In this document: in pieces, positions 4,091-56,448 of the stretch | Numbering within the stretch: the stretch's first letter is position 1 | How the letters are laid out: each line of letters opens with the position of its first letter | From: Leucoraja erinacea | Taxonomy: Eukaryota | Direction: 5' to 3' | NCBI RefSeq assembly: GCF_028641065.1 | Contig: NC_073377.1 | Location: 156,550,001 to 156,614,000, forward strand | DNA: 64,000 bases | The notes under the pieces: generated by a model | What the model saw: the letters and a program-made list of their open reading frames with translations, nothing else | What the model was told of the DNA's origin: nothing | Databases searched by the model: none | Position numbers and translations under genes: made by a program

Positions 4091-4336
4091 ACAATCCATT
4101 TTGACAGTCTCGCTAATATTGGATGAATGGTTTAGGAAATGCCACAGAAGAGAATAGGGAGGTTTCACGGCAGTCGGGTCACGACCCATGACCTGTACTG
4201 TTGCTACGCTGCTCCAAATGGATTACACGCGATGAACTGCAGGTAGGCACTTACCATTGTTTCCAACGTAGCGGGCCCGTTAAAACCCGCCGAAAATGTC
4301 AATTATTGCGCTGCAAATAATTATGGAAATCGGGAT

Positions 4337-4472
4337 CTTCTTCTTTCGTGTGGCGTGCACAGCCTAAAGTTGTTGGACAACTTGTTCTATTTGATCTTCC
4401 GTTTGTGCACGTCGAGTTGATTGCATTAGTCGAAACGGGGCGGACCACGTGAAGGTTGCAATCTTCCACCCC
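4337..4472 (-). mobile_element. Short retroposon headed by an HDV-like ribozyme, copy 1
   Basis: 11-bp TSD GA(A/T)ATCGGGAT at 4326-4336 and 4473-4483; 3' GAAAGAAGAAG tail; homologous to 10377-10518. Confidence 0.85.
4419..4472 (-). ncRNA. Minimal HDV/CPEB3-like self-cleaving ribozyme (predicted)
   Basis: GGGGUGG-AA-GAUUGCA-ACC-UUCACGU-GGU-CCGCCCC-GUUUCGA-CUAA-UGCAAUC parses as P1/J1-2/P2/P3/L3/P3'/P1'/mini-P4/J4-2 (catalytic C at 4429)/P2'. Confidence 0.85.
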
Positions 4473-4857
4473 GATATCGGGATAAGCGTGAGAGACATTT
4501 AGCCTACTTCAGAATTCCAAAAGTGAGGAGAAATGACGGTAGATAGAAGTGAGAGCTGAAGGGACAACAACAGATAGAGTGCTTGCCGAACATTGGCCGT
4601 TTGCTCACTGCATTTCATCAACTAAGGCATTATTTGTGTTTTTTCTTGAATTCTTTTGCATCTAAAAAGTTTCAGAAGTGATAAATCTGGCTGTAATTTT
4701 TTTTAATCGCCCATGGTTCTCAAGTGGGTTTTTACGTACAAAATGAAAACGCATCTGAAGAAAAATTTACAGCCAAATTTATCACCTGAGACTTTTTAGA
4801 TACCAAAGGAATCACGAAAAAACACAAATAATGCCTTAGTTGATGAAATGCAGTGAG

Positions 4858-5215
4858 TTCAGCACTTCAACTTCCCCCTCCCACTCCGAATCAGACCTCT
4901 CTGTCCTGGGTCTCCTCCATGGCCAGAGCGAGCAACACCGGAGATTGGAGGAACAGCACCTTATATTCCGCTTAGCCCTTGCTGTCTCCTCCCCTTCCTT
5001 AGCCCTCGGGCTGTCTTCCCCCCCCCCTCCCAGCCCTCGGGCTCCTCCTTCTCCCTTTTCCCTCCTTCTCCCCGCCACCCCCTATCAGTCTGAAGAAGGG
5101 TTTCGGCCCAAAACATTGCCTATTTCCTTCGCTCCATAGATGCTGCTGCACCCGCTGAGTTTCTCCAGCTTTTTTGTGTACCTTCGATTTTCCAGCATCT
5201 GCAGTTCCTTCTTGA
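4858..5215 (+). mobile_element. PLE 3' fragment (GIY-YIG C-terminus plus tail)
   Basis: Encodes ...SPSHSESDLSVLGLLHGQSEQHRRLEEQHLIFRL; hammerhead motif at 5090 with GAAA changed to AAAA. Confidence 0.85.
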
Positions 5216-6224
5216 ACAAATAATGCCTTACTGTGATGAAATGCAGTGAGCAAACGCGATAATTCCGATATTTTCAATTACGATATCTGCATGGCCAATG
5301 TTTACCAAGCACTTTAGCTGCTGTTGTCCCTTCAGCTCTCGCTTCTCTTTACCTTCATTTCGCTTCACGTTTGGAATTCTAAAGTTGGGTTCATGTCTCT
5401 CACACTTACCCCGACTTCCACAATTTTTTTCAGCGCAAAAATTCAACATTTTGGCATTTTTTAATGGGTAGGAAAGTACGCGTTTCTTGCATTTATAACA
5501 TATACCGGAAGTGACGGATGTCTTCCAGATGGATTGATCGGCTCCGTGCGTCAAGCCCTATGACCCAGTGACGTTATGTGCAACCCCCCTATATTTTTTT
5601 CTGAGACTTGGACTGAGGCACACAATGGAAGTAAAATTTGCATTTCAATGTGTAACGGTTTATTTGAAAATATCTGATGTCGACGCGAGGCTGCAATATT
5701 AACTCGCGTTTCTTATTGCCAATTCCATTCGGCTTCTCATTTTAAATTAAACCAAATAATATTGGGGGGGGGAGTATAAGGCTACATTATTCTGTGAATG
5801 CTTCAATAAAAATATTGCCAGTTCTCAATGCCGTAGGACCTTTTTATTTATTGAAAAAGAGTATTTGCCTCTATTGCATGAAGTAAGTTCAGCGTAAAAT
5901 CTCTTCACCAAAGGATTGATTAAAAATAGTGCAATTACTTTTATTGCTGGGAGAAATTTCAAGGGACACATGATTGGGTATTTAAAGTGAGAAATGCAAA
6001 CCGGGTATTTAAACTAAGGTTATGGAAATAACAATCTTAGGTAAACAATCAGGTCCATTCAAGAAAAGACATATTAAGAATTTCCCTTCGGATAAGGCAC
6101 ATATGGATCTCCCACAGTTAACGCTTGGTTGGTAAATGCTTAAAAAAAGTTTTTTATCAATATCCATTTAAAATTATGTTTGGAAAATTATAAGGATTTA
6201 GATAAGAGCTACATAGGGCTCTTA

Positions 6225-9300: not shown

Positions 9301-10376
9301 AGACACTGAAACAGACCATGGTCATTTTGCTAATGTACAACAATTGTATATGGGGGAATTGCATATGTGGGTGATTGTTGAAATATATCAGTATACATGG
9401 GAACAATACCTTTTATTCTAAAATTGATTTCTTGTTCTACAAACGCAACAATTCTGTATATTTTGCTAGAATTTGGGCAATTACTGCTGCAATAACTCTT
9501 AAGTTACAGACACAACAATGAATAAGTAAGGCCTATAGGGCCATTAAGGAATAGATAGGAAACCACCACAGGTAATTATAGGAAGGAGGAAGAAATATTA
9601 AATCATTCCATTTTACCATTTAACAAGGAATTAATTGACATTACTTTGGGTGATGATATGAGGAACAATGATGACGAGGAAGGTGAGATGATGAATGCAT
9701 TTAAAATTGAAGAAGGATATAGATTAAGTAGTTGATCAATATCAAAGGGAATAAAACTAATCCAATGGATTCCTTTGCACATTTTAAAATACTCTAGTGA
9801 AGAGATATCAGAGGCATTACTACACATACTTAATAATTCATTAAAAACCTGTAGTATCTATGGGCTGGCAGTTAGTTAACAAATTACCTATATTTAAAAA
9901 GGCAGTACAAGAAGTTCAGGGAATTATACCCTAGTCAGCTTAACATGGGTGCCAGGAACATAAAGGAAACCATATTAATGGAGACAATAAAGAATATTTA
10001 GAAATGAAAAGTAAATCGGGAAAGCCTGGATATCATAGTGGAAAGTACTGTTTGCCACTGTTATTGAGTTTTTTGAGTTGGAAGCAGAGAATATGGACAG
10101 CGATTACATGGTAGATGTAATTTATTTAGGTTTTCAAAAGGTCTTCTATAAGGTACCCCTTAAGGACAAGTGACTAAGGTCAGAAAAAGCAGAGTCAGGA
10201 GAATAGATTTATAGCTGACCAGAATACAGAACATTAGTGAAACATGTCTATTCACAGTTGAAGAAAGTGGGTTGTGATCTGATTTAGGCACTGGAATCAA
10301 AAACTAAATCTAAATTTACATATAAAGCCAAATTTCAAGGGATGGTCAAATATGATGATTCCAACAACTCACAGCA

Positions 10377-10428
10377 GGTGGGGGATTGCAACCTTCACGT
10401 GGTCTGCCCTGTTTCGACAAATGCAATC
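10377..10428 (+). ncRNA. Minimal HDV/CPEB3-like ribozyme, 5' end clipped by about 2 nt (predicted)
   Basis: GGUGG-GG-GAUUGCA-ACC-UUCACGU-GGU-CUGCCCU-GUUUCGA-CAAA-UGCAAUC; catalytic C at 10418. Confidence 0.8.
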
Positions 10429-10518
10429 AACCTGGTGTGCACAATCAAATAAGATCAAATAGAACAAGTTGTCCTACAACTTTAGGCTGTGCACGCCATA
10501 TGCAAGAAGAAGAAGAAG
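10377..10518 (+). mobile_element. Short retroposon headed by an HDV-like ribozyme, copy 2
   Basis: 8-bp TSD ACAGCAGG at 10371-10378 and 10519-10526 (GG shared with the element start); (AAG)5 tail; homologous to the reverse complement of 4337-4472. Confidence 0.85.
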
Positions 10519-31514: not shown

Positions 31515-32420
31515 TTAATTAACAGAACTTAAAATTTTGCTGGCAAATAAAACAGGCCTGGTAATTGGTTTATTATTATCAAAATGTTTGAAAAGTTCGC
31601 TCATGTGCCATCCCGCTGTCGCAAGGATGTGATCCAGTGGAACCTCCATATTTCTCGCTGCCGACGTGGCTGCAGCCCTGCTAGAGTGAGATTTAAATAC
31701 ATCAGTGTCCACTCCTGCGAATGCTAATACGCGTCTTAACCATCTAGAAATGGTCTGCACCGTTGCTCTTCTATGTGGTTTTTTATGACTGACGAAGCTG
31801 CCTCGAAGATCTTTTGTAACCTTTATGTATTCTTTAATATATGTAACAACACATAACCTGCGATCTGGTGGATACGCCAAGAGCTCCAACTTAAATCCTA
31901 GCGCACCTGATCTACTTTGCTTAATTAGCTCATCTATATAAAAGGTTACCTTACTATTGGATATAACTGCCTTATCCAGCTTTAATTTATGTAACGACTG
32001 GCCTCGTTGCGCTGAAACGAGCGCCATGAACATGACTAATTTATAGATGAGCTGGGCCAAAGATAATGATGCAGCTGGTGCCCAACTGCGAAGCAACGTT
32101 AATACTATATTAATATTCCATACTTCCCGAAATCTGGGCCTAGGAGGGTTTTTGTTAAAAAATACCCCTCATAAATTTGGATACCAATGGGTGAGAGCTG
32201 ACAGAATGGTGTCCAGATCCCAGCAGCAAATATGACGACAAAGCACTACGAGCAGTGTTAATAGCGCTATAACTCAATTTTTTGACAAAATATAAGGTTG
32301 AAAGAATTCCAACACATCGGCTAAAAGTCTTCCCATTCCCTAATGTATGAGATTACTGCTTCTTAGTGCCGTCCAGCTAAGCTGCAGTGATTACATCCAC
32401 CGTCCGGTCAGATAATCCGA
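31515..32420 (-). pseudogene. DIRS tyrosine recombinase (frameshifted)
   Basis: SYSAINTARSALSS N-terminal part; ALVSAQRGQSL, TISRWL, HSSRAAATS, AGW. Confidence 0.9.
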
Positions 32421-34420
32421 GCCCCAGGAAAGGTCTTCTCAGATTCTGCAAATACACGTTGATTCTGTCATGTAGCGGATGAAGTTCCTGGGAAACTGGC
32501 TGAATAAGCAAATATTTATGTCTATGAACAACCGTGGGTGGTTCCGTTAATACTCCGAGCAGTAAAGGGAACCATGGTTGTGTAGGCCAGTTAGGCACTA
32601 CTAAAATACCCGATGCGAAGTCTTGCATAATTTTTTGCAAGCATCGTCCAACGAGGCAGAATGGAGGGAAACCGTAGAAGAACATTCCCCCCCAGTCTAT
32701 AGAGAATGCATCTATAGCCTCCGCCCCTGGGTCTGGCTCCCATGCTACATATCTTGGTAACCGGTGATTAAGCCTGGAGGCGAACAAATCAATATCAGGT
32801 GTTCCATAACGAGCAATAATGTTGTTAAATACTTTTTGATTTAACATCCACTCAGTGTGATCATTGAATTTACGAGATCTAGTAACTGCCACCGCATTAA
32901 ATCCACCCGGCAAGTAAGCAGCTGAGATCCAAATTCTCCTGTCTATATACCAATTCCAAATGAGATTAACTAAAGTATCACAGGATACTGATTTGTTTCC
33001 ACCCATGTGATTAATATATGCCACAGCCGTAGTGTTATCGATTTGAAGTCTAACATGCACATCATGTAGCTTCGCACAGTAAGCCTTCAAGGCATAAAAT
33101 GCCGCCAGCATTTCCAGGTAATTGATACCATATTTAAGGCTAAATGGTAACTCGTTCATGTTCCATCTGCCACTGCAACTAGAGATGGTGTTAGTAGCTC
33201 CCCATCCCAGTGCACTTGCATCACTCTGCAGCGTTATTATAGGTTTACTAGACAAAAACCCACTGGAGCAATGTTGAATATTGGTCATCCACCATTGTAA
33301 CCGCTTTAGAATTAGGCAACAACTGCATAGATCTGTCAAAATGACGTTTGTGGAACATAACTGCCTGATCCTTTGCACGCTCCAGATTTCGATAATGCAA
33401 AGGCCCAAACTGAGCGGCTGGAAAGGCAGCCACTATTTTGCCTATTACTCTAGCCACCTGGCGAATAGATGGCTCTTCTGTAATCAGAAGATTATAACAA
33501 GCTTCCATTAAATCTATTTTTTTCCCCGTGGGCAGGGTCACAGACATTTCCACTGAGTTGATAGTAAACCCTAAATAGTCAATAGACCTCGTTGGTACCA
33601 ATCTGGATTTGGCTGGATGGATGATAAACCCCAATTTCTCAAGAATGAGCTTGGCAGCTGAAACAGCTAGTTTTGGCAAATGCAGTGTCTCCTGATGATC
33701 AGAATATCATCTATATAGCCCGTAATAATATGCCCTTTAGCTTTAAGTAAGCCGAGCACTGGTCTAAGCAGTTTGGTAAATAACCGAGGGGCTGAGCTTA
33801 ACCCATTAGGCAACACTTTAAACTGCCACAGCTGCCCCATGCAGCTAAACTTCAGATATCTCCAGTGATCCTTGTTAATCAGAATTGAATAATATGCATC
33901 CTTGAGATCGATCCATGCCATAAAGCAACCCTCGGAAATTAGTTGCTTAGCAGTAAGGAAATTCTCCATTTTAAAATGTCTATACTGCACATATGAGTTG
34001 AATTTTGCCAAATCAAGGATGATACGGCATCCACCATCTTTCTTCTCCCTGGAGAATATATTAGAGATGTATTGATCTTTTTCGTAAATTGATCTCTCAA
34101 TAACTTCTTTTATGTGCAATGCGTGTATTTCCGCTTGCATATCCAAAGTCTCTTGTTTGGAGCAAGTATACGACCGACTCGGCGTATCTTGTGTGGGTGG
34201 AAATGAGTTAGGCAAAAACTCAATTTTGAAACCCTTTATACTGTGCAATATAAACGGATCTGAAGTTACCTGACGCCATTCATGCAAGAACAAACTTAAC
34301 CTACCACCGACTTGAAATTCCTCCGCACACCCCGTGTGACTGATAGAACCGGACCCACCTACCTCAAAGGTTACAGGTGGTTTGACACCAGGCCCAGCGG
34401 ATCTTAATTTTGCTTCTGTT
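32377..34420 (-). pseudogene. DIRS pol: RT, RNase H and methyltransferase-like domain (frameshifted)
   Basis: VGGRL, DLKDAYY, LPNGLSSAPRLFTK, GYIDD, YLGF; SDASALGWG, INYLEM, DNTTAVAYIN; DLFASRLN, FPPF, WPTQPW. Confidence 0.92.
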
Positions 34421-34714
34421 TTTTCCCCCTCGCTCGGAAAAGTTGAGCTGTTGGGACGTGAGGCTGCCACATCTTCCAGGATGTGCAGGATGGGCCTTGG
34501 CCTAAAAAAGACCTGTGACCGGGTAGGACAAATCTGGAATTCCCACTGACCACAGAAAACCATTTCTTGCTGGTAGAGGTGTAGGGGTGATGACACTGGA
34601 GGAGGGGAGTCTTGCTCATAAAAGATGCTTTGATCATGCCAGCAGCTTTTAACACCTCATGTAAGTCCTTGACCTGTTTGCTCAAGTCTTCTCCGAAGAG
34701 GAATTTAGGAAGCT

Positions 34715-37523
34715 AGGAATTTAGGATGAGTGAAACGTGGTTGCAGGAGGGCTGTGATTGGAAACTAAATATTCCAGGATTTTGTTGCTTCAGGTGTGAT
34801 AGAATTGGAGGGGCAAGAGGTGGAGGTGTTGCATTGCTAGTCAGGGAAGATATTACAACAGTGCTTTGGCAGGATAGATTGGAGGGCTCATCTAGGGAGG
34901 CTATTTGGGTGGAATTGAGAAGTGGGAAAGATGTAGCAACACTTATAGGGGTGTATTATAGACCGCCAAACGGGGAATGAGAATTGGAAGAGCAAATATG
35001 TAAGGAGATAGCAGATATTAGTAGTAAGCACAAGGTAGTGATTGTGGGAGATTTCAACTTTCCACACATAGACTGGGAAACACATTCTGTAAATGGGCTG
35101 GATGGTTTGGAGTTTGTAAAATGTGTGCAGGATAGTTTTTTGCAGCAATACATAGAGGTACCTACTAAAGGAGGGGCAGTGCTGGACCTCCTGTTAGGAA
35201 ATGAGACGGGACAGGTGGCGGAGGTATGCGTTGGGGAGCACTTCGGGTCCAGTGATCACTATACCATTAGTTTCAATATAATTATGGAGAGAGTCAGAAC
35301 TGGACCTAGGGTTGAGGTTTTTGATTGGAGAAAGGCTAACTTTGATGAGATGCGAGATGATTTAAAAGGAGTGAACTGGGACATTTTGTTTTATGGGAAA
35401 GATGTAGAAGAGAAATGGAGGACATTTAAATGGGAAATTCTAAGAGTACAGAATCTTTATGTTCCTGTTCGGTTGAAAGGAAACAGTAAAAATTGGAAAG
35501 AGCCCTGGTTTTCAAGGGAAATTGGACATCTTGTTCGGAAAAAGAGGGAGATCTACAATAACTATAGGCAGCATGAAGTAAATGAGGTGCTTGAGGAGTA
35601 TAAGGAATGTAAAAAGAATCTTAAGAAATAAATTAGAAAAGCTAAAAGAAGATATGAGGTTGCTTTGGCAAGTAAGGTGAAAGTAAATCCAAAGGGTTTC
35701 TACAGCTATATTAATAGCAAAAGGATAACGAGGGATAAAATTGGTCCATTGGAGAGACAGAGTGGACAGTTATCTGCAGAGCCAAAAGAGATGGGGGAGA
35801 TATTGAACACATTTTTTTTCTTCGGTATTCAAGGAGAAGGATATTGAATTATGTGAGGTAAGGGAAACTAGTAGAGTAGCTATGGATACTATGAGGTTCA
35901 AAGTAAAAGAAGTACTGACACTTTTGAAAAATATAAAAGTGGATAAGTCTCCAGGTCCTGACAGGATATTCCCTAGGACATTGAGGGAAGTTAGTGTAGA
36001 AATAGTCGGGGCTATGACAGAAATATTTCAAATGTCATTAGAAACGGGAATAGTCCCCGAGGATTGGCGTACTGCGCATGTTGTTCCATTGTTTAAAAAG
36101 GGTTCTAAGAGTAAACCTAGCAATTATAGACCTGTTAGTTTGACTTCAGTGGTGGGCAAATTAATGGAAAAGATACTTAGAGATAATATATATAAGCATC
36201 TAGATAAATAGGGTCTGATTAGGAACAGTCAACATGGATTTGTGCCTGGAAGGTCATGTTTGACTAATCTTCTTGAATTTTTTGAAGAGGTTACTAGGGA
36301 AATTGACGAGGGTAAAGCAGTGGGTGTTGTCTATGTGGACTTTAGTAAGGCCTTTGACAAGGTTCCTCATGGAAGGTTGGTTAAGAAGGTTCAACTGTTG
36401 GTTATAAATGCAGGAATAGCAAGATGGATTCAACAGTGGCTGAATGGGAGAAGCCAGAGGGTAATGGTGGATGGCTGTTTATCAGGTTGGAGGCAGGTGG
36501 CTAGTGGGGTGCCTCGGGGATCTGTGTTGGGTCCTTTGTTGTTTGTCATGTACATCAATGATCTGGATGAAGGTGTGGTAAATTGGATTAGTAAGTATGC
36601 AGATGATACCAAGATAGGGGGTGTTGTGGATAATGAAGAGGATTTCCAAAGTCTACAGAGTGATTTAGGCCATTTGGAAAAATGGGCTGAAAGATGGCAG
36701 ATGGAGTTTAATGCTGATAAATGTGAGGTGCTACACTTTGGCAGGACAAATCAAAATAGGACGTACATGGTAAATGGTAGGGAATTGAAGAATACAGTTG
36801 AACAGAGGGATCTGGGTATAACCGTGCATAGTTCCTTGAAGGTGGAATCTCATATAGATAGGGTGGTAAAGAAAGCTTTTGGTATGCTAGCCTTTATAAA
36901 TTAGAGCATTGAGTATAGAAGCTGGGATGTAATGTTAAAATTGTACAAGGCATTGGTGAGACCAAATCTGGAGTCTGGTGTACAATTTTGGTCGCCCAAT
37001 TATAGGAAGGATGTCAACAAAATAGAGAGAGTACAGAGGAGATTTACTAGAATGTTGCCTGGGTTTCAACAACTAAGTTACAGAGATAGGTTGAATAAGT
37101 TAGGTCTTTATTCTCTGGAGTGCAGAAGGTTAAGGGGGGAACTTGATAGAGGTCTTTAAAATGATGAGAGGGATAGACAGAGTTGATGTGGACAAGCTTT
37201 TCCCTTTGAGAATAGGGAAGATTCAAACAAGAGGACATGACTTCAGAATTAAGGGACAGAAGTTTAGGGGCAATATGAGGGGGAACTTCTTTACTCAGAG
37301 AGTGGTAGCGGTGTGGAATGAGCTTCCAGTGGAAGTGGTGGAGGCAGGTTCATTGGTATCATTTAAAAATAAATTGGATAGGCATATGGATGAGAAGGGA
37401 ATGGAGGGTTATGGTATGAGTGCAGGCAGGTGGGACTAAGGGGGGAAAAAATTTGTTCGGCACGGACTTGTAGGGCCGAGATGGCCTGTTTCCGTGCTGT
37501 AATTGTTATATGGTTATATGGTT
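34715..37523 (+). mobile_element. CR1 LINE, nearly complete ORF2, 5'-truncated, inserted in DIRS gag
   Basis: APE motifs SETWL, YRPP, GDFN, SDH; RT motifs KSPGPD, NYRPVSLTS, DFSKAFD, YADD; (TTATATGG)2 tail; TSD AAGCT at 34710-34714 and 37524-37528; several stops and frameshifts. Confidence 0.95.
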
Positions 37524-37528
37524 AAGCT

Positions 37529-38470
37529 GAATATTGCTGGCCTTGCATAGATGTGTGAACTTTGGATTCAGTTCTGGCTTGATGGCGTCTTTCTGGAAGC
37601 AGTTAATTTCAAAATGAGCATTGCACAGCAGTGCCATAGCATCCTGCTGAACTTCGGACAATTGAACGTCATCGATTGACCTAGCAAAGGCCGTGATACC
37701 TGCGTGATACTTGTGTGATAGCCTCACGATCCGTTGAAGCTTCAGTACTTTGGATTTTGTCGTGGCCCCAATATAATGCCAAATAGTGGCGTTAACTAAG
37801 GGCACATTTAAGGTTGCACAATTTTCTGGACTGGGATATTTCGCAGCCTTATCCGCCATAGTCACTTCCTTCAGCTGGTGGGAAGTGAGGTAGCTGATGC
37901 TTCTGGCCAACTCCCCTTGAAGTGGCTTGCCTGTCCCCGAAGGAACAACAAATTTGGATGCAAGAGCGGGCAACTCTTCTTTATGCGAATCACGCACATC
38001 GTGCATTACAGCATGGGCCTCCGACACACATTCATATTCGGAGTCACCTGCATACTGATTTCCGAAACTCCCCTCGACCAAGTGGGAGGAAATAAGCAAC
38101 CCTGAACCAGGAGCTGCAGCAGGCGTTTGAATTGAACTGCCTGAGTATGCCTCCGTAGCACGGAGCATATTGTTTGCTAGCATCTTCTCCATAAGATGCT
38201 CCATCTGGGACAAATGGCCTAACACATCAGACATGGATGTGGGAGCAGTATCCTCCTGGCCTGAATCGTCTGACAGGACTTGCCTCATAGTTTTACCTTT
38301 GGCTTTAGCCCCCTTTGGGGCTGCCAAGCTGCTTCCTATAGGAACCATTTCAGAGGTAGCTGAGCAGACTCTGAGGTAGAAATGGACGGCCGCCGGCTTC
38401 CCGCACTACCGCGGTCTTTTGCTGCCGGCTTTACCGCGGCCCGTCTTGGTTTGGTCCTAGGTTTATCCAT
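37529..38470 (-). pseudogene. DIRS gag-like ORF1, 5' part (continues at 34714-34404 beyond the CR1 insertion)
   Basis: PSPENC..LNVP.VN..IW motif; ...CKASNIQL joins PKFLFGEDLSKQVK in frame once the CR1 and one AAGCT are removed. Confidence 0.8.
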
Positions 38471-47744: not shown

Positions 47745-50700
47745 AAATGTTTTTATTTATTTTATTAGAAGCAATTGTACAGGGATACGGCAATCGACAT
47801 AACAGTTATACAATTATTGTACAGCTTCATTTTTAACATTGAAACCTAAATATAAAAAAAACATTTTTAAAAATGGGAAAAAAGAGAGAAAATTTGAGTA
47901 TTCGTTTTTTCGCCGTTATTAGGCCGTAATTGAGGAAACGTCTTTGAAATATCGTTAGCTTAGAACAGGCCTCTGACATACCTAATGTGATCAGTTTTAT
48001 ATCTGGTTCCAATTTAATTTTAAGTATTTTGGAGAAGATATCAAATATTCCCCTACAGAAGTTTTGTAACTTTATACAGGAAGCGAAGGAATGGGTGATA
48101 GTCGCTTCTTGGAGGTGACAATTATCACAAATAGGAGAGATGTTTGGGAAGATCTTGTTCAATTTGGTCTTTGAATAGTTGAGTCTATGCAGTATTTTAA
48201 ATTGTTCCAGGGAGTACCTGACATTGAGAGAGCAGTAGTGTATGTATAGAAGGCTTTCCTCCCAGCTAGCCTTTGAAATTAATAAACCCAATTCGTCTTC
48301 CCATGCTCGCCTATGTATCTCAGAAGATGGGATGTGTGCAATTAAGAGAGTGTTGTAAATGTAGAATATTAACTTGCTTGTATCAACATGTCTATTCATA
48401 TATTCATCTAGTATATCTAGACCCATAAAATAACAATCTTGTGCAAATATTTTCACATACTCGGAATTGAAGATATCTAAAAAAATTGCTTGCTTTCAAA
48501 TGATATTTCTCCTGTAGTTCTTGAAACGAGAGGAAAATCCTCTTCTCGTAAAGATCTCCCACAGTTTTAATTCCTGAGCTTTTCCATTGTGCAAACGCCT
48601 TATCTAAAGTAGATGGTTTAAACGAGAGATTGTTAGCGATTGGTAAAAGGAGAGAGAAATTTCTCAATTTGAGACTTAATTTCAACTGTTTCCAAATGCG
48701 TAGGGTATTATCGGATTTTGCTCATACGTTGATTTATTCAGATGTGTTGGAGAAAGAAGGATCGTGCCTATATTAAAAGGCAAACAATCTTCCCTCTCCA
48801 TTTTAAACCAATTTATCTGTTGACATGTATTATCCATCCAGTAGTTTTTAATATTAGTCACCCATCTTATTTAGATTTACATAAATGTCTTTTATGTATT
48901 CTATGGGTTTTATAGTACCAAATGAAATTTGTGATAACAGAGTCAAGTTTTTTTTAAACTTTTGGGGAGATATATCGGTATTGATTAAAATAGGTATAAG
49001 AGTTGTGAAAGGAAAATCAACTTTAGGGCATTTATTCCACCTATAAGGGAAATAGGGAATGTTTTCCACAATTGAATGAGGGCATTTAATTTAGTAATTA
49101 ATGGTGGGAAATTTGTTTGAAATAGAGAGGTGTATTTTCTAGTCACATAGACTCCAAGGTATCTAAATTGTTCAGTAACAATTTTGAAAGGAAATGTTTT
49201 GAGTTGTGAAGGTTCTTGAGCTTTTATTGGCATCATTTCACGTTTATTCCAGTTTATTCTATACCCTGAAAAGGAACCAAATTGCCTATAAGGATAATAT
49301 ATTTGGGATACTGACTTGGGATTTGGTGATGTATAAGAGTACATTGTCTGCATATAACAAAATCTTGTTATTGGTATGTTTAGTATTGTATCTATGAATA
49401 CCCAAATGTACTCTGATGATTTCTGCTAAAGGTTCTATGGCTAAGGTAAATACCATTGGTGAAAGGGCACATCCTTGTCTATTACCCCTGGATAATTGAA
49501 ATTTAGGTGACAGAATTTGATTGGTCAATATTCTGGTTGTCGGATTGTTATATAACCGCTTTACCCGTGAAATAAAATTTTCTCCTAGTTGGAATTTTTC
49601 CAACACTGTAAAGATATAGGCCCATTCTACTTGATCAAATGCTTTTTCTGCATCTAAAGAAATAATTGTTAAATCTTCATTAATCGTTCTGTGTGAATAC
49701 ATTATATTAAAGAGGCATCTCAAATTATGAAACAAATGTCGCTTAGGTATAAACCCAGTTTGGTCTTGATGTATTAATTTACTAATGTACAGACTTAGTC
49801 TTCTTGCCAAAGTCTTGGCTATATTTTCCCCCTCTTTTTTCCCTCTTCTTTCCCCTCTATTTCACCTATCCTTTTAGTTCTATCTAGTTATAAAAAAAAA
49901 ACGAAGAAAAATGTAAAAAAAAAAATATTGGAGACAATGTAATAATAACTGTCAATGTTATCATTTTAAAAATGTAAGAAAGTAATGATGTAATAGACTA
50001 TGTACTTATCTCCTGTATTTAGAAGAGCTATTGCTCCATATGATTCAGGCTCTTCGAGATTTTTGTCTTTTTTAGGTATTAATGTAATGGTTGATTCAGC
50101 AAGGGTTTGTGGTAAGGTCTGTTCTTTAAAAGCATGTATATAAAGGGCTCGTAGGCATGGGGAAATTAAATAATTGAATTTTTTTATAGAATTCATTACT
50201 GAACCCATCTGGACCTGGCGTTTTCCCACTATTCAGTGATTTGATAGTCACTTCAATATCTTTTATCGTAATCTCAGCACTTAATTCTTCTCATTCCTCC
50301 TCATTAAGTGATAGGAGGTTGCAATTGTCAAGAAAGTTTTTGTTCTTTGCAGAGTCGGCTGATGTTTTTGATGCATATAGATTTTGATAGAATTTTTGGA
50401 ATCTTTCATTAATGTCTTTAGGAAGTGTGAGCAGCTCACCTTGTTCTGATCTAATTTTTTGAATAGTGTGATCTTTTTCCATTTTTCTCAGTTAGCGTGC
50501 CAGACGTTCGTGCGGTTTATCACCAAATTCGAAAATGTTTTGCTTAGTGTATTGAAATATCTTAATAACTTTTGCCGAGAGGATCTGATTTAATTTAAAT
50601 TTTAATGCTGCTATCTTATTATGTTTAACAGTAGATGGATCAATCGCATTTTCTGAGTCGATCTGTTTAATCTGTTTTTCTAATTCCAATTGTTCCAACC

Positions 50701-51530
50701 TGTTTTTTTTATTTTGAAAAGCTTGGTACAAAATAATGCAGCCTCTGATAAAGGCCTTGAAAGATTCCCACAATAATGTAGCTGAAATACCAGGTGTGTC
50801 GTTTGTCTCATAGAATAATTCCATCTGCTGCTTCAGGTAGTCACATCAACCTGGCTTAGTTAGTATTAGTTGATTAAATCTCTAGAACGTTTTTTTGTTA
50901 TGCATTCCTTCTAGTTTTAAGGAGAAGGTTAACGGACAATGGTCAGAAATGATATTATTGTGATATTTAGGATTGAATGTAAAATGGATCAGTTTTGAAT
51001 CCACCAGAAAATAATCAATTCGTGTATACGTTTTGTGAACACATGAATAAAAAGAGTATTCTCTTCCGGATGGATTGGCAATCCTCCAGACATCGGTTAT
51101 GTTTGTGTTTTTTATGTAAGTATTTAAAAGTTCGCTGGATTTTGATTTTAAAGTGTTTCTCCTTTGCTGTGAAGATTTATCCAAATATGGATATAATACA
51201 CAATTTAGGTCTCCAATTATCAGATTTTGCTGACAGGGGTCTGAAATTATATTAAATATTTTATTAAAAAATTGTGGGTTATCAAAATTAGGAGCATAGA
51301 TGTTCACCATAGTAAGTGGGGTTGTGTGTAATTCCCCAGATACTATAATGTACCTACCTTCCTTATTGGCTATAGTGGATTTGTGTTTAAATGGTGTACC
51401 TTTACGAATTAGAATTGCAGTACCTCTTGCTTTGGAAAGAAAAGTAGAGTGATATACTTGACCAATCCAGCTAGCCTTCAGCCTGTTTTGAGCTCCATTT
51501 TTGAGATGCGTCTCCTATAAAAAATATTAT
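47745..51530 (-). mobile_element. L1 LINE ORF2, decayed and 5'-truncated
   Basis: EN motifs NIYAPN, GDLN, RIDYFL, SDH; RT motifs DQTGFI, DAEKAFD, RQGCALSP, LYADN, YLGV; C-terminal CxxC...H...C; AATAAA-rich end near 47750. Confidence 0.92.
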
Positions 51531-55678: not shown

Positions 55679-56160
55679 TTACACAAAAAAGCTGGAGAAA
55701 CTCAGCGGGTGCAGCAGCGTCTATGGAATGAAGGAAATAGGCAACGTTTTGGGCCGAAACCCTTCTTCAGACTGATCGGGGGCGGGGGTGGGCGGGGACA
55801 AGAAAGGAAAAAGGAGGAGGAGCCCGAAGGCTAGGGGATGGTAGGAGACAGCAGGGGGACTGAGGAAGGGGAGGAGACAGCAAAGACTAACAAAATTGGG
55901 AGAATTCGATGTTCATGCCCCCAGGATGCAGACTCCCCAAACGGAATATGAGGTGCTGTTCCTCCAATTTCCGGTGCTGCTCGCTGTGGCCATGGAGGAG
56001 ACCCAGGACAGAGAGGTCGGAGACGGAGTGGGAGGGGGAGTTGAAGTGCTGAGCCACCGGGAGGTCAGCTTGGTTATTGCGGACCGAGCGGAGGTGTTCG
56101 GCGAAACGATCGCCCAACCTCCGCTTGGTCTCACCGATATAGATCTGCTGACATCTAGAC
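55679..56160 (-). mobile_element. PLE 3' fragment with GIY-YIG endonuclease end
   Basis: IYIGETKRRLGDRFAEH...VAQHFN...GMNIEF*; hammerhead motif at 55741-55772; 14-bp TSD AAAGTTCCCGTAGA at 55665-55678 and 56161-56174. Confidence 0.92.
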
Positions 56161-56448
56161 AAAGTTCCCGTAGAAATGTATAGCATTACCCATGATTTTC
56201 TCCGTTTCACCGGGGTTACAAGCATGGGTAACACCAATGAACTGTCCTCTCTAGCCTGGTCAACCTTTGGGAATGGGGGTCTTCCCCTCCTAACTGATGA
56301 AATGGTCGCTGGGTCCCAGGTTATTCTAGAAGGAGTAGGAAGTTCACATCAAGGTGCAACAATTACCTAATTATCACAGTTCACTTCCTGCACTGTGTGT
56401 GATGTGTGGTTGGAACTGTTTGAGTCACAAAATTTTGAGGACGAGTTA

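Follow-up and report, generated by a model that had tools for sequence, protein, structure and literature searches.

What kind of mobile element is the 136-bp unit that lies on the minus strand of a 64,000-nucleotide stretch of the Leucoraja erinacea genome (hereafter the window), and does the RNA fold that can be drawn for its first 54 nucleotides belong to a ribozyme? A first-pass annotation had described a SINE-like retroposon that begins with a minimal HDV/CPEB3-type ribozyme and is copied by the RT of a LINE. The reading that we favor, and regard as quite probable, is that the unit is an internally deleted form of a single-ORF LINE, likely a Vingi element, and that its predicted ribozyme, which lacks the P4 helix, likely cleaves before the first nucleotide (G1), likely fixing the RNA's 5' end. 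The features concerned are located in Table 1.

Table 1. Features of the element, its insertion site and related heads (window positions unless a locus is named)
Feature	Position	Strand	Remarks
Retroposon of the younger subfamily, non-autonomous through internal deletion of a LINE	4337..4472	minus	136 bp
Predicted HDV/CPEB3-type ribozyme, 54 nt, without P4 helix	4419..4472	minus	predicted cut 4473/G1 (4472)
P1, 5' strand	4466..4472	minus	partner strand 4437-4443; 4437 is C here, U in most copies
P2, 5' strand	4457..4463	minus	partner strand 4419-4425
P3 (3 bp) and L3 (7 nt)	4444..4456	minus	descriptor parse; predicted P1.1 is C22 with G37 (4436)
5-nt linker replacing P4	4430..4434	minus	within 4426..4434
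J4/2 with predicted catalytic C at 4429	within 4426..4434	minus	C first in J4/2
Remainder of LINE-derived 5' part (nt 55-72)	4401..4418	minus	match to LINE 5' end
Element-specific junction	4381..4400	minus	23-mer spanning junction: 4,664 exact matches
3' part taken from the LINE: final codons with the stop codon (4366-4364), 3'UTR and (GAA)n	4337..4380	minus	
Target-site duplication, 5' copy	4473..4483	minus	11 bp, adjoining G1
Target-site duplication, 3' copy	4326..4336	minus	1 mismatch
Empty single target copy, opposite arm of palindromic host repeat	5408..5418	plus	arms 4477-4598 / 5293-5414
Second copy, older subfamily	10375..10515	plus	87% alike; first bases altered or lost
LINE 5' ends above Rfam CPEB3 threshold	L229:3617-3690; L354:4183-4256	minus (L354)	

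The unit carries a (GAA)n tail and is of a kind flanked by target-site duplications (TSDs) of 10-14 bp; the 11-bp duplication with one mismatch that had been noticed against G1 is indeed present. Duplications and tail alike bear the hallmarks of target-primed insertion. The insertion occurred in one arm of a palindromic repeat, the other arm of which keeps a single, unoccupied target. This host sequence (4200-5560) is a nested palindromic repeat of MITE-like appearance, with a further pair of arms (4604-4675/4786-4857) besides those in Table 1; Rfam miRNA matches at 4600-4860 fall on it and were rejected as spurious. No tRNA was found in the element by a tRNA search or with Rfam, and a motif scan of its sense strand, based on A- and B-box motifs as we presume them to be, yielded no A box and no full B box, so that a SINE of the tRNA, 7SL or 5S type, with its Pol III head, is rejected. 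Reading frames 2 and 3 contain stops, and frame 1 stays open for 45 codons without a start codon, in keeping with the earlier remark that neither tRNA-like boxes nor an ORF could be seen. Elsewhere in the window lie ORFs that we take to be of DIRS type (recombinase-, RT/RNase H- and gag-like; 31515-34656 and 37506-38405, minus strand), interrupted by a CR1-like RT (34981-36904, plus strand), along with presumed L1/Tx1-like endonuclease and RT fragments (47833-51514, minus strand) and what is presumably the end of a GIY-YIG-like (Penelope-type) ORF (55887-56348, minus strand).

The origin of the element became apparent through a chance match of its tail in locus L117, at the end of an RT ORF; this tail is common to 648 candidates. 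Nucleotides 93-136 correspond to the last codons, stop codon, 3'UTR and (GAA)n of a LINE and are unlike the tails of seven loci from other families that were tried, and nucleotides 1-72 are the start of the full-length LINE copies L182 and L184, reached by walking upstream, of which L184 measures about 2.8 kb and has an 11-bp TSD of its own. Further 5' ends of this LINE present the same head with A32, that is, with U5-A32 instead of U5.G32. Because one 2.8-kb, single-ORF endonuclease/RT LINE is the source of some 72 bases at the start and some 44 at the end, the element is an internally deleted LINE and not a tRNA-type SINE. Judged by its sequence it is a bipartite non-autonomous LINE, a kind already described: both ends come from the same LINE, and the whole was amplified as a unit with TSDs and a simple-repeat tail. 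The element-specific junction (4381..4400) seems to contain a short repeat of a motif from the LINE 5'UTR. Of the earlier description, then, the mobile unit and its copying by a LINE RT are upheld, the latter by the discovery of the partner, and the independent SINE head is not, the head being the unchanged 5' end of that LINE.

A domain search of the partner LINE returned an endonuclease, an RT and a weak zf-RVT, and no RNase H. Among the best 120 of its 518 homologues are many single ORFs of ~1,000 aa on contigs of 3-3.5 kb, the closest being 72% identical. All of the partner copies examined are broken and 87-94% alike, none with an intact ORF, and both the LINE and the element family look like decaying relics in this genome. 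A compact single ORF with APE and RT domains and no RNase H is the architecture by which the Vingi clade, the sister clade of Ingi, is defined (PMC13708176). An RT tree of 32 rows, which excluded two unalignable RTE rows and contained no reference Vingi or Ingi protein, placed the partner, the other families of the same genome and most of the metagenome relatives, including L229, in one clade (95/99) that is separate from RTE, CR1 and L1; warnings of long branches concerned the outgroups. The head of L229 agrees by eye with the published Vingi-2_Gav at 34 of 36 bases. On the strength of the architecture, of this match and of motifs that we take to be those of Vingi, the partner most likely belongs to the Vingi clade. 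An RTE-clade family with DUF6451 (L091-L120; 717 candidates) also ends in (GAA)n; it was rejected as the partner, having a different tail and falling outside the RT clade.

Of 26 LINE pieces that include the head (29 rows minus three copies of the short element), eight or more, and three others by eye, have it inverted relative to the downstream part of the LINE, a pattern that we assume to be like that of twin priming. During such inversions copying would stop at or slightly inside G1. The inverted heads at 5' junctions occur in L141, L145, L149, L154, L165, L173, L175, L183, L187, L195 and L205, several of which end near nt 80, and contigs of other sequencing runs also break at window position 4401; there may be a favored position for second priming directly after the ribozyme.

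The element is abundant in the 2.19-Gb genome. Searches with the window sequence and with the older subfamily returned 1,188 and 3,446 candidates, the 29-nt tail has 551 exact matches and the 23-nt junction 4,664 (none for the reversed control). The exact junction matches set the copy number at 4,664 or more, and the total is probably near 10^4, as we infer from the 3-8% divergence of copies; loci totaling 526 kb, some of which overlap, happened to contain four full copies. Six of 30 copies selected by the junction belong to the young subfamily and 24 to the old. Young copies differ from their own majority by a mean of 3.4%, as counted in 26 of 30 tail-selected copies, the four with an ungapped start beyond nt 10 being left out.

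These copies also define where the element begins. The first-pass annotation had placed the 5' end of the family at G1, expecting numerous copies with ends stacked there, and had named shared sequence upstream of G1 as contrary evidence. The start is exactly at nt 1 in 43 of 60 copies chosen irrespective of their heads (20/30 middle-selected and 23/30 tail-selected). TSDs were recognized in 49 of 57 copies (60 loci minus two duplicates and one without an exact tail); 45 of the 49 measure 10-14 bp and 45 touch G1, as counted without a chance control. No base is conserved in the 12 positions upstream of G1 among 51 copies, where a T at -1 (23/51) is not significant across the positions examined. 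The element occurs in 20 of the 23 sequencing runs listed, with seven coded organisms among them and ten rows marked as potential sources, and in seven of eight runs between 27 and 201 contigs diverge at 4472 into unrelated flanks (the eighth run had six records); all of these runs consist of assembled contigs, mostly guessed to derive from RNA, so that the loose ends piled up at G1 are contig ends and not RNA ends. These comparisons support the boundary at G1. Many loose ends in run X11 fall at 4393-4396, which suggests a lineage-specific variant of the middle of the element. Contig joints that skip the element may be paralogues of the host repeat and so were not accepted as evidence of polymorphism.

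Every part proposed for the head (P1, P2, P3, L3, J4/2 and the C at 4429) is found in its place between 4472 and 4419. P1 (7 bp, one of them U.G) is followed by a 2-nt J1/2, a 7-bp P2, a 3-bp P3 with L3 UUCACGU, J1/4 GU, a 5-nt linker and J4/2 CUAA, with the 3' strand of P2 ending at 4419, so that the HDV-like nested order P1-P2-P3-L3-P3'-P1'-(P4)-J4/2-P2' is fully paired. A strict HDV descriptor has a single match on both strands of the window and none in 50 of 50 dimer-block shuffles, a test that is partly circular because the descriptor was written with the element already known. The proposed comparison with Rfam gave a single ribozyme match, on exactly 4419-4472 (minus), to HDV-F-prausnitzii (RF02682), but at 18.5 bits (E 1.9) it stayed below the curated gathering score of 44; RF00622 matched in none of five loci of the element's family, and both models contain P4. 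The nested-only folding energy is no better than that of shuffles (z -0.6 to -0.7), as expected because the pseudoknot cannot be scored.

The P1.1 pair we take, after the structure of the CPEB3 ribozyme, to be C22-G37. Of 30 copies, 29 keep G37 and 26 keep C22; C44 is retained by 28 of 30 young copies and by 28 of 29 old ones. Since 28 of 30 tail-selected copies have U at nt 36, the pair typical of the family is G1.U36, and the C at this position is the sole difference of the window copy from the family majority. The majorities of the young, old and LINE lineages differ within nt 1-54 at nt 8 (in J1/2), 32 (U-A to U.G) and 45 (the second base of J4/2), a further difference at nt 2 being an effect of truncated LINE copies; G1, L3, G37 and the predicted catalytic C are retained in all three. 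All pairs and key bases are intact in 23 of 60 copies not chosen by the head, as would be expected of neutral decay after insertion. A GU-UUCG-AC hairpin that might mask the catalytic C was rejected as unstable (+1.8 kcal/mol). Minimal HDV-like ribozymes without P4 are active in vitro and have their catalytic C as the first base of J4/2 (PMC10879173).

Further evidence for the fold comes from related LINEs. The strict descriptor matched once in 80 metagenome loci, directly upstream of L229's ORF, and had no match in 10 shuffles; a looser descriptor found convincing heads in three of the 23 metagenome loci whose sequence extends upstream of the ORF (L229, L278 and L294) and, in 30 loci of the same genome, in two more LINE families (L342/L340 and L354). 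A fourth family of this genome (L346, L367) has by eye a P1/P3-like head with no C at the expected place. The heads of L229 and L354 exceed the Rfam CPEB3 gathering score (55.6 and 56 versus 35), and three other hits stay below it (26, 25.2 and 20.6 bits); nine metagenome loci had no Rfam match. Neither these scores nor the fact that each head sits at the 5' end of a LINE depends on our own descriptor. When pairs were counted on the descriptor parses, because MAFFT misaligned P4-less against P4-bearing heads, 83 of 85 cells in five LINE families could pair, with both sides changed in 12 of 17 pairs; shuffles average 61.8 cells and none of 10,000 reached 83, a score that is inflated by the families having been chosen because the descriptor found them. 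The heads have little sequence in common beyond the fold, and a P4 region of 23-25 nt is kept by all the other families found, being absent only in the partner LINE and its short derivative. No relative was seen among the viral contigs searched, and 45 related loci in genome contigs are mostly 3' fragments. This genome also contains three or more additional families of that clade that have decayed less (L340, L342, L343 and L344; L346, L354, L355, L364 and L367). Long open frames persist in some of them, two have HDV-like heads that include P4, and the head of one lacks the expected C. A match resembling the histone 3' stem-loop at L221:551-596, which at 26.7 bits does not reach the threshold, lies immediately upstream of the ORF of a related LINE.

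The HDV/CPEB3-type fold first read from a single copy is accordingly supported by compensatory changes, and that it is real and not due to chance appears well supported by these sequence comparisons. The opposite notion, of a chance fold in an ordinary SINE or repeat fragment, can appeal to the weak Rfam score and the unremarkable nested folding energy of the element itself; it is largely refuted by the covariation, by the CPEB3-level scores of relatives, by G1 falling exactly where the element begins and by the LINE origin of the head, and we give it almost no credence.

If the predicted ribozyme is functional, a source copy would be transcribed, most likely within a longer host transcript, and the upstream RNA would be removed by self-cleavage before G1. 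The LINE protein would then bind the shared 3' end in trans, nick the DNA and reverse-transcribe up to G1, and the compact fold may additionally shield the 5'-OH end. An internal promoter is a possible alternative source of the transcript, and a sharp 5' end is not exclusive to a ribozyme since such a promoter would produce one too. The first ~77 bases might unite a ribozyme, which only trims, with an internal Pol II promoter, a possibility that we consider rather doubtful. It is modeled on L1Tc/NARTc, whose first 77 nt (Pr77) are both (PMC3383444, PMC4035085), and the relationship of Vingi to Ingi as sister clades (PMC13708176), the ~18 LINE bases that the element retained past the ribozyme and its high copy number would agree with it; the heads of related families, however, have little in common apart from their fold. 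This possibility is compatible with the explanation preferred here in everything except the source of transcription.

Alternatively, what maintains the P4-less fold might be RT binding, protection of the 5' end or priming of the second strand, efficient cleavage having been lost. P4 was lost here while all other families found retain it, HDV-like folds protect the 5' ends of R2 templates (PMC13708176), the frequent inversion of the head at LINE 5' junctions hints at a protein-binding role, and in 7 of 21 copies P1 has a competitor in the upstream flank. Yet G1, L3, G37 and the catalytic C persist in the young, old and LINE lineages, P4-less ribozymes do cleave in vitro (PMC10879173), and in the window copy a nested-only model favors P1 (0.93), a misfold with an upstream Alt-P1 (0.07) having been set aside as minor. 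We judge it improbable that efficient cleavage has been given up, and self-cleavage before G1 is the reading retained in what follows.

Several known systems resemble the element in one respect or another. NARTc and RIME, non-autonomous trypanosome derivatives of L1Tc and ingi, likewise combine a LINE 5' end bearing an HDV-like ribozyme with a LINE 3' end and are mobilized in trans (PMC3383444); the element is half as long as NARTc (136 versus 263 nt) and differs in its (GAA)n tail, its animal host, its ribozyme without P4 and its partner without RNase H. The R2 SIDEs of Drosophila also arose by internal deletion that joined a 5' ribozyme to a LINE 3' end (PMC3414825), but they are rare and rDNA-specific, whereas the element is dispersed in at least 4,664 copies and has a partner of APE type. 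Vingi-1_EE and the Vingi parts of SINE2-1_ACar and SINE2-1_AMi are reported bipartite products of internal deletion, like the element (PMC5786205). The minimal HDV-like ribozymes (drz-Mtgn-1, theta) share the nested double pseudoknot without P4 and the C first in J4/2; nearly 99% of these forms are from phages, many beside tRNAs (PMC10879173), in contrast to the head of a retroposon in a large animal genome. With the mammalian CPEB3 ribozyme (RF00622) the family has L3, J1/4 GU and G1.U36 in common, and C36 of the window copy mirrors the human CPEB3 U36C SNP (PMC8233481); the element differs in its P1-P3 sequences, its missing P4 and its score below threshold, and it is much less similar to CPEB3 than are other LINE families of its clade. 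Reviews state that some SINEs use HDV-like ribozymes (PMC6765202) and list lamprey, lancelet and sea urchin examples (PMC8256844). The literature searched contains no description of the element, of a Vingi ribozyme or of a link between Vingi and CPEB3, the sole text match for CPEB3 with Vingi being the word Tvingi, and part of this may be covered by Ruminski 2011, Webb 2009, Kojima 2011, Repbase, Dfam or patents. The lancelet and sea-urchin ribozymes that have been tested may, we presume, be Vingi heads.

The likeness to CPEB3 raises the question of where the mammalian ribozyme came from. L229 has the Rfam CPEB3 consensus base at 35 of 37 positions from P1 to J1/4, and the published 5' end of Vingi-2_Gav agrees with that consensus by eye at 38 of 40 bases on one side of the P4 interior and at 14 of 14 on the other. 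Structure alone does not impose such identity, since the core is all that other heads with this fold have in common. The supplement of PMC5786205 provides the 5' ends of Vingi-2_Gav, Vingi-4_Crp and Vingi-1_BF, a stretch from inside Vingi-2_SPur and the middle of the alligator SINE2-1_AMi, and the ribozyme passages of that paper do not name these Vingi sequences as ribozymes. Outside mammals the CPEB3 ribozyme is said not to be known (PMC8233481), the idea that ribozymes were domesticated from mobile elements has been put forward in a general way (PMC7761336), and an old Vingi trace is present in the human genome (PMC5753468). Two LINE heads that pass the CPEB3 threshold, and Vingi 5' ends that match almost base for base, suggest that the CPEB3 ribozyme of mammals was exapted from a Vingi 5' end. 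We lean toward the wider proposition, itself drawn from sequence likeness, that the Vingi clade starts with an HDV-like ribozyme, that the element would be its smallest, P4-less and mass-amplified carrier and that the mammalian CPEB3 ribozyme would be a domesticated ancient Vingi 5' end. If so, the related LINE heads would be the outgroup said to be missing for the CPEB3 ribozyme (PMC8233481), and its origin would become directly testable. The Vingi-derived middle of the alligator tRNA-SINE SINE2-1_AMi (61-127; PMC5786205 supplement) resembles a CPEB3-type ribozyme in which L3 and the region of G1 are altered; perhaps it was inactivated to keep the tRNA head from being cut off.

What is new here, and well supported, is a high-copy derivative of a likely Vingi LINE that is very short and headed by a predicted ribozyme without P4. 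The clade to which it likely belongs now serves RNA-only gene insertion, with templates that carry both a 5' and a 3' UTR (PMC13708176). If our reading is correct, 136 nt, consisting of a 5' ribozyme and a 44-nt tail, would represent a natural minimum for the cis requirements of a non-LTR RT. A P4-less HDV-like ribozyme of a type known almost only from phages would then reside at thousands of sites in an animal genome, and intronic copies in the sense orientation could cut host pre-mRNAs.
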